Below are positions 6,159 to 60,281 of a stretch of DNA of 64,000 bases, one piece after another. A program made the translations under genes and the position numbers. The stretch spans positions 2,418,001-2,482,000 of the forward strand of contig OX597814.1 in NCBI GenBank assembly GCA_951406725.2. The letters run 5' to 3'. Origin of the DNA: Octopus vulgaris. Taxonomy: Eukaryota. The notes beneath the pieces are model-generated. The model did no database searches. It had not been told where the DNA came from and was given only the letters and a program-made list of their open reading frames with translations. Position 1 is the first letter of the stretch. Each line of letters starts with the position of its first letter.

Positions 6159-6449
6159 TTAATAAAATAGGAGATGGAATGTGTAACAGACTTTATTGGG
6201 TACAACACATGTTTCGACCCGTTCTGGATCTCTTCAGGTACAGCAATAGAATGTATCATTAGAGATTTGTTGAGTCGGCTTATGTGCCGGTATATGCCGA
6301 ATTTGATGGACATATAGCAGTACGTAAGCCGGCTCAACAAATCTCTGAGCGAGAGTTTTTATTGATGAACCTGAAGAGACCCAGAAAGGGTTGAATCGTG
6401 TGTTGTACCCCAAAAATTCTATTACACATTCCATCTCCTATTTTATTAA
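6159..6449. mobile_element. ~290-bp fold-back element with a hammerhead motif in each arm (PLE-derived)
   Basis: TTAATAAAATAGGAGATGGAATGTGTAA at the left end is the reverse complement of 6422-6449. The inner arms AGAGATTTGTTGAGTCGGCTTA / TAAGCCGGCTCAACAAATCTCT also pair. Confidence 0.85.
6200..6241 (-). ncRNA. Type I minimal hammerhead ribozyme
   Basis: Minus strand: GUAC-CUGAAGA-GAUCC-agaac-GGGUC-GAAAC-augu-GUU^GUAC. Stems I and II pair; stem III is the palindrome ACAUGU. The plus-arm copy 6367-6408 is degenerate (GAAUC). Confidence 0.8.
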
Positions 6450-7585
6450 CGCAACTATATATATATATATATGTATATATATAGATAGATAGATATAGAT
6501 ATATATACATATGAATTAGCATATATTTGATATATATATACATACATATATATATATATATACGTGCTTACATACATACATACATACATACGTGCTTACA
6601 TACATACATACATACATACATACATACATACATACATACATACATACATACATACATACACACATATATATATCAGATATATGCTAATATTTTTCTCACG
6701 CTCAGAATTACTGAAGCCTGGCTGGAATAAACTAGCTGCATCAGTTGTTCGCTGTCAAGAGAACATCCTTGGAAAGTTTCCTGCTTCCTGACATTCACCA
6801 AGACCATATCTGATGTCCTCACTCTGGTTTCTTCTGGGGTTTTTTTTTTCGTGTTATAGTGCACCTGATCACTATATACAAGTTCATTTTCTGCGTGTGT
6901 GTATGGGTGTGTGTTTATTATATTTACCAATGCACCGACAACGTGTTTATGTATAAAAATGTATAAGTTTAAACGCATAAACTAAATAAATATATTTAGC
7001 TTTTTTGTGCTTTGAGATTAACCACAGACGTCGCATCAGAACGAAACGATTAGTTCCTTCATTTAACTCCCGCTAAATCGAGAGTGTGTACGCTCACGTA
7101 AAACATATCTAAAAGTTGTTGAAAGTCATTTATTCACTCTATAGAACAAGAATGGTAAATTCGAACGGTGTTTAGTGAAAAACCATTCAAAATTACTCAA
7201 AGACGATAACTAATGGGTCTTGCATACGAAAAAATCTAATGCACAAGATTAGAAGGCGTCTTTAATCCGGGTTTCGCCATGCAATTTTCAGCTGTCTTAT
7301 CAAGAGATTCTTATAAATTGCTAGTATTCTATGGACATTATATAAGAGATAAAAACAACTACACATGCATGTACTGATATTGACACAAACACATACATAT
7401 ATAATTTGTACGTAAATACATATGTTTGTATATATACATGTACGTATGCATATACATATATATATATATATATATATATATATATATATATATATATATA
7501 TATATATATATATATATATATGTATGTATGTATGTATATATATATATATATATATATATATATATATATATGCATATATATATAT

Positions 7586-7760
7586 ATGGAGAATTCACCA
7601 AAAACCCCCAAAAGACAAAGACAGGTGGTGTAGACAACAAACAGATGTATTAGTTTAACGCTCGGGAAGTAAAAAAGTGTTTAACGTTTCGAGCCTACGC
7701 TCTTCCACAGGAAGGAACACAGAAAGAAACAATGAGAGAAAATAAAGAATGTGTAGTGGC
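7586..7760 (-). mobile_element. PLE-type terminal fragment with atypical hammerhead (CUGUGGA core, 7678-7714)
   Basis: Reverse-complement homologue of 60210-60375. Reads CUGUGGA-A-GAGC-GUAG-GCUC-GAAAC-GUU; abuts (TA)n. Confidence 0.65.
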
Positions 7761-7927
7761 TAGTATTATTGACATGACTTTATTGACTTTCATATCTACT
7801 GTACTATATAGTGGCCATGTCCATAAAAGAGGGACCAGAGCAGATGCTAAAAACTAAAGGCCTATATCTCTGGCCCAACATGTTAGCAGGGCAATGGAAC
7901 GCTAGAGATGGCAGCAACTCGATTTTG

Positions 7928-8508
7928 CAGAGTTGGAACCTACATACATTGGAAGCTATGCCAACATTATGGAATAACAACAGAAAAAAGATGGTATAGG
8001 CACACACCAGAAAAGGTCACAGAAAACGAGAAAGCAACCATACTCTGGGATATGCCGATACACACAGATAGAGAAATTAAGGCCAACAGACCAGATATAG
8101 TTGTCAGAGATCATGAAGAAAAAAAAAGCTTTCTAATTGATGTATCAATACCGGCTGATGACAACGTGTCTCTAAAAGAAATGGAGAAACTCTCAAAATA
8201 CAAAGACCTGGAAATAGAGGTAACTAGAATGTGGAATCTGAAAACAGAAACAATTCCTATCATAGTAGGTGCATTAGGCATGATAAAAAAATATTCAGAC
8301 AAATACATAACAAAAACACCAGGACTTACAAACACATATAACATACAGAAAATTGCACTACTAGGCACTGCACACATCCTACGCAGAACACTTTCCATAC
8401 AATAACCACCAGAGCATCACAACAAATCACAGCACATACCCAAGGCACACAGAGCTGTGCTCGGTAGTGAAGTGAAAGCACGCTATAAAAATAAAAATAA
8501 AACTACTG
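7928..8508 (+). mobile_element. 5'-truncated R4/Dong-clade non-LTR retrotransposon (restriction-like endonuclease + 3'UTR)
   Basis: ORF 7908-8405: ILWD..TD..NRPDIV..IDVSIP..EKLSKYKDL..IPIIVGALG (RLE PD..D-x-x-P..K-x-x-KY pattern). Its 3' end runs into (TAA)n, the known Dong target. Near-identical copy at 63.6-64 kb. Confidence 0.92.
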
Positions 8509-9577
8509 AATAATAATAATAATAATAATAATAGTAATAATAATAATAATAATAATAATAATAATAATAATAATAATAATAATAATAATAATAATAATGA
8601 TAATAATAATAATAATAATAATAATAATAATAATAATAATAATAATAATAATAATAATAATGATAATAATAATAATAATAATAATAATAATAATAATAAT
8701 AATAATAATAATAATAATAATAATAATAATTATAATAATAATAATAATAATAACAATAATAATAATAATTATAATAATAATAATAATAATAACAATAATA
8801 ATTATAATAATAATAATAATAATAACACTAATAATAATAATAATAATAATAATAATAATAATAATAATAATAATAATAATAATAATAATAATAATAATAA
8901 TAATAATAATGATAATAATAATAATAATAATAATAATAATAATAATAATAATAATAATAATAATGATAATAATAATAATAATAATAATAATAATAATAAT
9001 AATAATAATAATAATAATAATAATAATAATAATAATGATAATAATAATAATAATAATAATAATAATAATAATAATAATAATAATAATAATAATAATGATA
9101 ATAATAATAATAATAATAATAATAATAATAATAATAATAATAATAATAATAATAATAATTATAATAATAATAATAATAATAACAATAATAATAATAATTA
9201 TAATAATAATAATAATAATAACAATAATAATTATAATAATAATAATAATAATAATAATAATAATAATAATAATAATAATAATAATAATAATAATAATAAT
9301 AATAATAATTATAATAATAATAATAATAATAACAATAATAATAATAATTATAATAATAATAATAATAATAACAATAATAATTATAATAATAATAATTATA
9401 ATAATAATAATAATAATAACAATAATAATAATAATTATAATAATAATAATAATAATAACAATAATAATTATAATAATAATAATAATAATAACAGTAATAA
9501 TAATAATAATAATAATAATAATAATAATAATAATAATAATAATAATAATAATAATAATAATAATAATAACAGTAATA
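8509..9577. repeat. ~1.07-kb (AAT)n microsatellite with recurring TAT/AAC/GAT variants
   Basis: Directly visible; explains the poly-Ile ORFs. Confidence 0.97.
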
Positions 9578-58575: not shown

Positions 58576-59334
58576 CAGTGATACCTCGCAGTACGAGTTT
58601 AATTCGTTCCATGGCCGAGTTCGTCTTACGATTTACTCGTTTTAAAAACCAATTTTTTCCATTGAAATTAACTAAAATATAATTAATTCGTCCCAGCCCC
58701 CCAAAACCACTCAAAAATAAAGTTCTATGGGTTTTAAAACAGAACAGGTGTAGTTACAAATAAAATGACAATCTCTGTGTATATAAAGCTGAAGTTGTCT
58801 GTTTATGGCAGGTTTGGTAGCCTTCAACTAATTCTATCTCCTCCGAGACCCTTTGATGCAAGTTGACCAAAATTGAGAATATGATAGAAGAATGCTTGCT
58901 CTTCCTTCTGAGAAGAAAAAAATTCAAATCGGACCATGTTAACACCAGAAATTATTTCCATCAAAAAGGTGCTTTTTTTTCTATGAAAATCCCTATTTTT
59001 TACGATTTTTTGACTGCTGTGTCGCCATTTTTCGGTGTATTTCAACCAGAAAAATATTCACTTAAAGAGAATAACAAGCTACATAATGCAAAATTTTTAC
59101 TTTTCAAAAATTCCAATTCTAAAGTGTCGAAACAAATCCGAGCGACGCCGGGGTGATACTGCTAGTTATAGAAAAAGAGAATGCGAAAGAAATATGTAAA
59201 GTAGTTTTATTAACTGAATTACCTTAAAGATTTGTGTGCTAGTACTGCGGATTTCAGCTCGTATTTCCCGACAAAAATTCGCACGAGTTGTACAGCAAAT
59301 TACTCTGGTGCACTCGTACTGCGAGATTCTATTG
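58576..59334. mobile_element. Tigger/pogo-like MITE interrupted by a Helitron
   Basis: TA|CAGTGATACCTCGCAGTACGAG ... CTCGTACTGCGAGATTCTATTG|TA. Confidence 0.8.
58772..59165 (+). mobile_element. Non-autonomous Helitron
   Basis: A|TC...CCGAGCGACGCCGG...CTAG|T. Confidence 0.87.
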
Positions 59335-59349
59335 TATCTATTTCTGTGA

Positions 59350-59927
59350 TATTGGCATCAAATTTTGGCACAAGGCAAGCATGTTCAGGGGGTGGGGTAA
59401 GCCGACTACATCGCCCCCCGCTATTTCTCAACTGGTATTTATTTTATAGACCCCAAAATGATGAATGGTAAAGTCGACGTCTGTGGAATTTGAACCCAGA
59501 ACTTTAAGACGGACGAAATACCTATTTCTTTACTACCCACAGGGGAACTAAACACAGAGGGAGAGACAAACGGATTAAGTCGATTACATCGACCCCAGTG
59601 CGTAAATGGTACTTAATTTATCGACCCCAAAAGGATGAAAGGCAAATTCGACCTCGGCGGAATTTGAACTCAGAACGTAACGGCAGACGAAATACCTATT
59701 TCTTTACTACCCACGAGGGGCTAAACACACAGGGGACAAATAAGGACAGACAAACGAATCAAGTCGATTATATCGACCCCAGTGCGTAACTGGTACTTAT
59801 TTAATCGTCCCCGAAGAAATGAAAGGCAAAGATGACCTCGGCGGAATTTGAACTCAGAACGTAACGCTGACGAAATACCGCTAAACATTTCACCCGGCGT
59901 GCTAACATTTCTGTCAGCTCGTCGCCT
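59350..59927 (-). mobile_element. SINE family B trimer (head-[body-tail1]x2-body-tail2)
   Basis: Same junction sequence at 59522/59523 and 59696/59697; ~174-bp period. Confidence 0.88.
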
Positions 59928-60245
59928 TAAGTATAAAGTAAATATTAACATGTTAACACCGAGGCATGGCGCCCGAGTAACAAACTAACGGCAGTCATTG
60001 ATTATTGTAAATAATTTGGTGTTAAAGATCAGAATTTAATATGCTGCTATGACGATGGCGACAGTAGCAGCGCCATTACCAGGATTTCTTGCTACCCTCT
60101 GTACAAAGGAAAATTTGCAATAAATACCTCTAAAAGTAAGCGATTTTTGTAGAATCGGAATGTCTTGAAATATTGATGGAAATGAACTACTACTGTCAGA
60201 CACTAAACCTTTTTCTATTTTCTCTCCCTGTGTATTTCTGTGTTC

Positions 60246-60281
60246 CTTTCTGTCGAAGAGCGTAGGCTCGAAACGTAAAAG
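60246..60281 (+). ncRNA. Atypical hammerhead-like motif (CUGUCGA core)
   Basis: CUUU-CUGUCGA-A-GAGC-GUAG-GCUC-GAAAC-GUA^AAAG. All stems pair; A6 is replaced by U. Confidence 0.6.

Follow-up and report, generated by a model that had tools for sequence, protein, structure and literature searches.

The stretch analysed here comprises 64,000 nt of the Octopus vulgaris genome (assembly GCA_951406725.2, contig OX597814.1, positions 2,418,001 to 2,482,000 of the forward strand; hereafter the window), and carries seven hammerhead ribozyme motifs with intact cores, nine partial sites and broken open reading frames (ORFs) of Penelope-like elements (Table 1). By core, junction and stem I the seven are type I hammerheads, for which cut sites can be predicted. 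The motifs as a whole, with their very short stem III, are very probably what many truncated Penelope-like elements, for the most part of the Hydra clade, left behind as 3' terminal repeats. The window is 36% G+C, with 15,052 of its 64,000 bases in tandem repeats, and contains no host gene recognisable by Pfam in 143 of the 345 stop-to-stop frames. In these frames Pfam calls no GIY-YIG or reverse transcriptase (RT) domain, zf-RVT at 63415 being the sole exception, and it calls neither domain in five relatives. The remnants themselves were located with a profile built from 151 relatives.

Table 1. Hammerhead motifs, Penelope ORF remnants and parts of the duplication-bounded unit at 47628-48044, in window coordinates.
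Feature	Position	Strand	Remarks
Type I hammerhead, intact core	6200-6241	-	Predicted cut after 6204; half of inverted pair 6159-6449
Inverted partner of 6200, 81% identical	6367-6408	+	A15.1>U, weakened stems; ends at (TA)n
ACGU-stem-III family 3' end	7589-7761	-	4-nt stem III, A6>U, stem I broken; motif ~7678-7714; ends at (TA)n
(AAT)n family 3' part	9579-9723	+	Minimal hammerhead 9628-9673, intact; cut predicted to fall after 9668
Inverted ORF piece of the 14368-15209 remnant	14286-14372	-	Profile match
Broken Hydra-clade Penelope ORF	14286-15209	+	RT thumb, CxCx5C linker and endonuclease at 14368-15209; profile iE 8e-41, 4e-16, 3e-11
Hammerhead remnant	15442-15524	+	U16.1>C; long stem II; endonuclease CxH 270 nt upstream
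Inverted-repeat insertion between (TA)n tracts	16473-16718	-	Keeps GAAA + ACGAUCGU + A (~16612-16629); no CUGANGA
Hammerhead 3' half	22877-22916	-	GAAA + ACACGUGU + C, lacks CUGANGA; 23347-23386 is its inverted partner
Hammerhead 3' half	23347-23386	+	GAAA + ACACGUGU + C, no CUGANGA
15442-family 3' half (80% identity)	23430-23517	+	Intact GAAA-stem III-UA; absent from the first-pass list
Type I hammerhead, intact core, Hydra-type	24878-24968	+	60-nt stem II; ACAAUUGU stem III; (TA)n 35 nt behind cut
Candidate U3-A8 core variant	25249-25293	-	Perfect 6-bp stem I; weak stem II (-1.1 kcal/mol); ACCGGU stem III; outside descriptors used
Type I hammerhead, intact core	25553-25631	-	Stem II long and bulged; forms an inverted pair with 25736, (TA)n on both sides
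Inverted partner of 25553, 91%	25736-25804	+	Ends after GAAAC, at (TA)n
Hydra-type ORF remnant	39335-39502	-	iE 2e-9; no hammerhead found with it
13-bp direct repeat, left copy (target-site duplication)	47628-47640	.	Exact, begins ATT
(AAT)n family 3' part	47641-47789	-	Minimal hammerhead 47695-47740, intact; cut predicted to fall after 47700; 47641 is the family 3' end
(AAT)17, internal to element	47790-47839	-	Part of the 391-bp unit
tRNA-like head, A and B boxes	47840-47914	-	75% like SINE head 21552-21613 over 63 nt
Leader, 29 nt	47915-47943	-	Precedes tRNA-like head
Inverted 3' piece of the 47641 family	47944-48031	+	Starts 6 nt behind predicted cut; 30-nt tail, missing from minus-strand copy
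13-bp direct repeat, right copy	48032-48044	.	Exact
Broken Hydra-clade endonuclease	49372-49740	+	Further piece 48857-48991
Type I hammerhead, intact core	49916-49976	+	230 nt behind endonuclease CxH; (TA)n 22 nt behind cut
Type I hammerhead, intact core	53076-53136	+	One stem I mismatch; stem III ACUCGGAGU, same as Hydra-2_Amil and Penelope-16_HM
Minimal hammerhead, complete save A6>U	60246-60281	+	Element 60198-60367

The type I descriptor, which calls for intact CUGANGA, GAAA and UH together with a stem I and a foldable stem II, finds seven motifs in the window. In 300 local dinucleotide shuffles the mean is 0.09 and the highest count 2, so that none reaches seven. A second descriptor likewise gives seven, against 0.02 in shuffles, and a stricter one without bulges recovers four of them. 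The first-pass annotation, made by a model from the letters alone, had placed the seven on the same strands and within 1-3 nt of these positions, with cores that are indeed intact, and had named a similar rate in shuffled sequence as a ground for refutation; in the window the two rates are far apart. Stem I has 3-6 pairs (four of five at 53076). To avoid circularity, sites were also chosen on core letters alone, with the best of at most two registers taken for stem I: the ten sites so picked, representing nine distinct pairs of stem I strands, show 25 Watson-Crick pairs at 36 positions, against 11.7 when strands are swapped, and only 4 of 20,000 swaps reach 25. The earlier statement that most motifs have a very short, self-complementary stem III stands in full for four of the seven intact motifs and in part for the other three, where 8 of 9, 6 of 8 and, in register, 4 of 9 positions are self-complementary.

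Rfam misses every motif of the window: no hammerhead reaches the gathering score, none is among the 150 of 368 matches listed at E <= 1 for the whole window, where microsatellite-driven microRNA matches dominate, and none is among the five matches at E <= 10 on 47200-48500. Minimal hammerheads are known to evade canonical descriptors (Cervera and de la Pena 2014, PMC4209133). A descriptor search for the U3-A8 variant returned two matches against 0.24 in shuffles, neither of them convincing.

What ties the motifs to Penelope is in part their position. Those at 15442 and 49916 lie in sense behind the last CxH of an endonuclease remnant, as the first-pass annotation had noticed when it set two motifs directly behind GIY-YIG-type remnants. 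CxCx5C and CxH are kept at 14368-15209 and CxH at 49372-49740; CxxC is not intact in frame in either. By eye, 22 of 41 residues of the 49372 endonuclease are identical to Hydra-1_Obim of Octopus bimaculoides, and the best of the 151 library relatives is 29% identical to it over 119 residues. The RT core is absent from the window; among long relatives, DKT is present in 18 of 25 and R/K-W-K/R in 14 of 25. The Hydra clade is marked by the CxCx5C linker, a CxxC/E/N/CxH endonuclease end, RWK and DKT in the RT and insertion at (TA)n, and its published hammerhead table gives 8-10-nt self-complementary stems III and one Octopus motif (Craig et al. 2021, PMC8557442). The window agrees with Hydra-clade elements, Hydra-1_Obim included, in CxCx5C and CxH, in (TA)n neighbours, in a hammerhead behind the endonuclease and in the self-complementary stem III of 8-10 nt, the stem III letters at 53076 being those of two entries in that table. 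The single Octopus family listed there differs from those of the window, which shows several others, none with that motif.

Related loci point in the same direction. In 69 metagenome loci of the Hydra clade, 8 of the 32 with room for it carry a motif 119-212 nt behind the endonuclease, with none in antisense; a wider descriptor applied to the 69 loci (157,896 bases) gives 21 sense matches against one antisense, and the stem I strands of core-picked motifs pair at 57 of 64 positions, against 21.6. Eight loci (L010, L013, L015, L017, L018, L026, L031 and L055) have a non-standard 10.1-11.1 pair (U-U or C-C), as in the published Hydra table, and it is in part because of such pairs that Hydra-clade hammerheads escape descriptors. 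In viral contigs the Hydra profile had no match.

The remaining architecture is that of metazoan Penelope minimal hammerheads as described in PMC4209133: type I, with a short palindromic stem III, dimer dependence and a U3-A8 variant, in many families per genome, mostly as single copies with some opposite-strand pairs 100-700 bp apart. The two ACGU-type families of the window (4-nt stem III, extra A after the core) are of this minimal type, and the extra base after A9 is common to 9628, 47695, 60246 and 7678. The extrapolated number of about 10^5 (see below), the A6>U family and the tRNA-headed unit set the window apart from what the parts of PMC4209133 covered here describe. Of ten predicted cut sites, seven lie within 130 nt upstream of a microsatellite, compared with 14.5% of 5000 random positions, a proximity measured against a microsatellite list that was chosen after looking.

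That choice is one of several points that weigh against a common Penelope origin. An ORF remnant adjoins only two of the 16 sites, the others being assigned by architecture, and neither ACGU-type family can be linked to a protein in the window. The fold energy of all eight motifs compared is no better than that of shuffles (z -1.65 to +0.84); folding z-scores are uninformative here and lend no support of their own. Nor does compensatory change appear within a family: 9628 and 47695 differ by one one-sided change, and no paired changes occur among the listed variants. The covariation expected by the first-pass annotation is therefore not seen in two copies and in variants of at least 4%, and stem I is supported across families only; since divergence is too small, within-family covariation is weakly probed.

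The nine partial sites of the first-pass list are real, with the qualification that six have no usable core and that three inverted pairs (6200/6367, 25553/25736 and 22900/23348) are halves of single insertions. Merging these pairs leaves about 13 insertions and about 11 families from 16 sites. The "several unrelated families" of the earlier description are diverse but not all different in kind, as most match the published Hydra-clade architecture. GAA followed by a perfect palindrome of at least 8 occurs four times (once in the intact 24878 motif), against 0.42 in shuffles, with 0 of 200 doing as well, and some partial sites could be chance matches. The copies at 7589-7761 and 60198-60367 are 82% identical and differ at N7; A6>U in both suggests that a source element may have spread with a weakened core, and hammerheads with A6C are slow in published work (PMC3088659).

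A mechanism that could produce such a density can be assembled from published work on related elements. The element's protein would nick AT-rich DNA, and reverse transcription would start 20-170 nt downstream of the hammerhead (PMC11167929, PMC8557442). Because of this downstream start, even the shortest insertion would keep the motif, and because nearly every insertion would keep it, the density of motifs would be explained without a function of the copies. Priming from both strands would yield an inverted partner and a one-sided tail, and in a two-ended insertion the stretch between the outward 3' ends would derive from the template. Truncated copies in inverted orientation, and a tail of 30-40 bp confined to one end, are indeed described as marks of Penelope (PMC8557442). 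Ribozyme activity would be confined to source elements and would require a dimer or the help of the element's protein. RNA read through an inverted pair would hold the motif once in sense and once in antisense, and should rather fold into a long hairpin.

The single or inverted copies in the window are probably mostly inert, because no same-strand tandem with a hammerhead occurs in it, by self-comparison and among 150 of 156 tandem-repeat rows listed. In this respect the term "ribozyme population" used in the first-pass annotation overstates activity, all the more as the core of the family at 9628 and 47695 decays at CpG. As a monomer, stem III can form no pairs in two of the seven intact motifs and 2-3 pairs in five; the modelled same-strand dimer is better than two monomers in four of seven, although the active dimer is the lowest-energy fold in none, which counts against the scheme. 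Cleavage is likely to matter in source elements only. In published work, minimal motifs were inactive as monomers and cleaved little or slowly as dimers (PMC4209133), and eight of nine frog dimers did not cleave (10.64898/2026.07.22.740005). In the anole Poseidon element PAc the hammerhead depends on the protein that the element encodes, insertion in vitro can do without the ribozyme, and no RNA-seq ends were found at its cut (Frangieh et al. 2024, PMC11167929).

The family represented at 9628 and 47695, with a 4-nt stem III and no ORF alongside, deserves separate treatment. At 47628-48044 one copy sits in a unit, its tRNA-like head and target duplication unremarked in the first-pass annotation (as was the 3' half at 23430-23517), in which the exact 13-bp duplication encloses 391 bp (47641-48031); none of 4660 background windows shares a 13-mer. 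The left end of the unit, 47641, is also the commonest end of the family (in 401, 447 and 350 contigs with unlike flanks, among the matches listed). On the minus strand the order is a 29-nt leader, the head, (AAT)17, 49 nt, the hammerhead and 59 nt to the end, with no ORF. The (AAT)n is internal and not the target, because the repeat, as (TTA)n, continues on the 5' side in 173, 220 and 124 contigs; 3' flanks differ among contigs. A 3' repeat tail of the type found in long interspersed elements (LINEs) is thus absent, the repeat being internal and the 3' end fixed and non-repetitive with an optional tail. No inner duplication surrounds the head, and no (AAT)n lies on its far side. On the sense strand, none of three pieces of the family has a T4 run, which would be an RNA polymerase III stop, whereas all 11 other pieces have one or more. 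The A and B boxes were found by pattern, and three such heads are marked in the window.

This anatomy would make the unit similar to a short interspersed element (SINE) but mobilised by Penelope. PAc nicks both strands at ATT and starts reverse transcription from two internal sites, which gives an optional tail (PMC11167929), and this behaviour fits the ATT-starting duplication, the inverted piece and the one-sided tail at 47628-48044, with the difference that PAc belongs to another clade and that its hammerhead, which overlaps the start of the ORF, is assisted by the protein.

The abundance of the family was gauged by placing contigs of four runs on 47200-47785 at 80% likeness. In three DNA runs, of three organism codes, the unique flank is covered at a depth of about 40, which rises to 1.2-8.5 million over 47641-47783 (27,225, 21,916 and 19,292 contigs). 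Parts of a 2.5-kb stretch occur in runs under five organism codes. The element/flank ratios, 0.3-1.9, 1.0-2.1 and 1.1-2.2 x 10^5 (the last with the single-copy depth taken as 15.5), are not copy numbers and are inflated by overlapping short contigs, which tells against taking them at face value; the family likely has 10^4-10^5 copies, and two copies per window would extrapolate to 8.8 x 10^4 (1-32 x 10^4). The fourth run, X20, which is only guessed to be RNA, covers the element with 2,992 contigs but leaves the flank uncovered, from which neither expression nor cleavage follows. Viral and metagenome contigs gave no exact match to 20- and 25-base patterns taken from the 47695 family. The unique flank 47218-47660 differs from runs X2 and X3 by 15-16 substitutions and an 18-bp gap, neither being the haplotype of the window.

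Variants at 4% or above were tabulated for this family, a threshold that leans to common variants and to that extent works against our interpretation. The free position N7 is the only non-CpG core position varying at that level (8.5-16.8% for one change, 0.4-14.6% for another), with no listed variant at eleven other core positions; one loop II base varies by 8-13%, and other non-CpG sites by at most 6%. CpG positions have decayed: G12 by 7-11%, C11.1 by 11-15%, the stem III pair by 2-9% and a CpG outside the motif by 14-18%. This pattern fits a core that is kept in source lineages and decays after insertion.

We lean towards the view that the 9628/47695 family is a non-coding Penelope passenger, which would be transcribed from a tRNA-type promoter; the anatomy behind this view is seen at one locus only. 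A number of facts count against it. Rfam and ARAGORN do not call the 47840-47914 head a tRNA, and the 29-nt leader is at odds with a plain RNA polymerase III (Pol III) start. No third copy emerged from viral and metagenome scans, and among predicted junk proteins none was found to cover both head and hammerhead. The head is present at one of the two window copies; upstream of the other, at 9579, stands the end of a LINE that we take to be of Dong/R4 type, which could be a later insertion into (AAT)n or a truncated joint. This LINE end (7887-8500) terminates in 1.1 kb of (AAT)n reaching the hammerhead element at 9579.

The same distribution of heads, with the Dong/R4 3' end upstream at 9579, would also suit a different origin, a possibility to be taken seriously if on the doubtful side: that the 47695 family is no more than the terminal repeat at the 3' end of an autonomous element, of Neptune or Poseidon type and with internal (AAT)n, and that the head at 47840 was gained once, by template switching or by later insertion of a SINE into the (AAT)n. 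SINEs with tRNA-like heads are common in the window (three A/B-box heads, and the SINE at 54450-54825), and an extra base after A9 with a 4-nt palindrome is what has been described for autonomous elements (PMC4209133). The head, however, lies within a single 13-bp duplication, with neither an inner duplication nor (AAT)n on its far side, and the sense strand is free of T4 runs, unlike the 11 other pieces.

An origin of the motifs as solo offspring of tandem non-LTR retrozyme arrays, whose satellite-like units yield circular RNAs by self-cleavage, is unlikely. Animal retrozymes with type I hammerheads, often monomers, derive from Penelope terminal repeats (10.64898/2026.07.22.740005), and the inverted piece at 47944 begins just behind the predicted cut; yet no hammerhead array appears in the self-comparison or among the tandem repeats listed, two motifs stand behind endonuclease remnants, and the inverted pairs and the one-sided tail are marks of Penelope insertion. 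Less likely still is that many copies are active ribozymes used by the host for cutting intronic or non-coding transcripts, either as monomers with a longer stem III or in trans. The 2-3 monomer pairs in five of the seven motifs would permit the former and a very high copy number would favour the latter, but the core CpG sites decay by 2-15% each, published minimal motifs have no activity as monomers and little as dimers (PMC4209133), and the anole motif depends on its protein and leaves no RNA-seq ends at its cut (PMC11167929). Chance matches in AT-rich, microsatellite-rich DNA, although descriptors with one free core change give 1.1-2.3 per shuffle, are refuted for the seven intact motifs by the shuffle counts, by the recurrence of families and by the sense bias in related loci.

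Returning to a Penelope passenger, its nearest published counterparts are short non-coding repeats. Schistosoma Sm-alpha has a Pol III-type promoter followed by a hammerhead, like the 47641-48031 unit, but is tandem and self-cleaves from multimers (PMC6765202), whereas the octopus unit is dispersed, with a 4-nt stem III, an (AAT)n inside it and the insertion marks of Penelope. Animal non-LTR retrozymes share with the window a non-coding nature, a type I hammerhead and a proposed role as Penelope passengers (PMC7229834, 10.64898/2026.07.22.740005); they are defined by tandem units, of which the window has none, and no tRNA head is described in the parts of these papers covered here. A literature search, outside of which were Repbase, Dfam, subscription papers and bioRxiv supplements, gave no precedent for a tRNA-headed Penelope passenger closer than these.

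Seven motifs per 64 kb extrapolate to 3 x 10^5 per 2.8 Gb (Poisson range 1.2-6.3 x 10^5), one window being a thin sample. This number, with one family very deep in three DNA runs, bears out the earlier suggestion of a diverse and very numerous set of Penelope-type minimal hammerheads; as to its being "largely unannotated", the ribozymes are so, while the elements are annotated as repeats (6.83% of the assembly, 190 families). For minimal hammerheads, 2,000-9,000 per genome have been reported with a narrower descriptor (PMC4209133), the giant squid paper gives 235 Rfam Hammerhead_1 matches, and PMC8557442 gives neither hammerhead density nor copy number in the parts covered. Main texts among the matches listed in our literature search contain no report of octopus ribozymes, and four motifs of the window occur in no paper text searched. 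The class is known, including its heterogeneity, its dimer dependence and an Octopus example in a supplement; what is likely new is the scale and the tRNA-headed, duplication-bounded unit. Lunse, Weinberg and Breaker reportedly described in 2017 a set of some 150,000 variants with short stem III, Penelope association and dimer cleavage. If that set holds Octopus sequences, the claim of scale may already be in print.

We see an even chance that the 47641 unit stands for one of the commonest short repeats of the octopus, a tRNA-headed Pol III SINE mobilised by a Penelope-like element rather than a LINE, whose minimal hammerhead would have been selected through tens of thousands of insertions and which, with the Hydra families, would contribute some 10^5 motifs, a number above every per-genome count in the literature covered here. 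Such a number of motifs in many families, if real, would amount to a natural mutation scan of what Penelope hammerheads must keep, and would offer a direct route to asking whether the ribozyme is needed for transposition, which was left open in vitro (PMC11167929). A tRNA-headed Penelope passenger would be a pairing of SINE and partner not found in the literature searched, and the family could give a name to some of the 250 Mb annotated as "unclassified SINE" in O. vulgaris.

Penelope-type pieces cover 7.4% of the window, close to the 6.83% of the assembly annotation, which finds a nearly even density of transposable elements (53.8 +/- 8.7 kb per 100 kb); Dong/R4-type ends, tRNA-headed SINEs and the Penelope share all agree with that annotation. 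For units other than that at 47641, a target duplication is unreadable where the ends are (TA)n, and was otherwise not found.

Several other candidates were rejected as hammerheads. Those at 30557 and 40676 have CUGANGA in both copies but no stem III/UH, the one at 54445-54520 is the antisense end of a tRNA SINE, and 31378, 13691, 13322 and 47708 were likewise discarded. A repeat family beside (TA)n (40598-40900 (-), 30503-30588 (+) and 15632-15965 (+)) keeps CUGANGA with varying N7 in two copies and has no hammerhead. An 85-bp direct repeat at 24469-24833 stands just upstream of the 24878 hammerhead, and a 180-bp inverted repeat lies at 40284-40463; neither showed a duplication or motif.

Among the other repeats, the young restriction-endonuclease LINE at 7887-8500 (+) recurs as a second 3' end at 63415-63999 (+), 98% identical over 338 bp, and has an older relative near 62700-63100. 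The abundant tRNA-headed SINE whose head is 75% like 47840-47914 is found at 21299-21617 (-), 38801-39120 (-), 12845-13081, 31647-31830 and 37835-38129. A second tRNA-headed SINE, of about 370 bp (54450-54825 (-) and 31451-31646 (+)), has in antisense a 3' end consisting of a 10-bp hairpin and then GAAACGU, without the 5' core. An abundant repeat with partial tandem subunits of about 180 bp is present at 1267-1572, 34615-35001, 38182-38416, 59364-59933, 30601-30810 and 13831-14037. Finally, a 390-bp repeat has two direct copies (57159-57543 and 58780-59166), which are 86% identical, lie 1.6 kb apart and both begin with TATATA.

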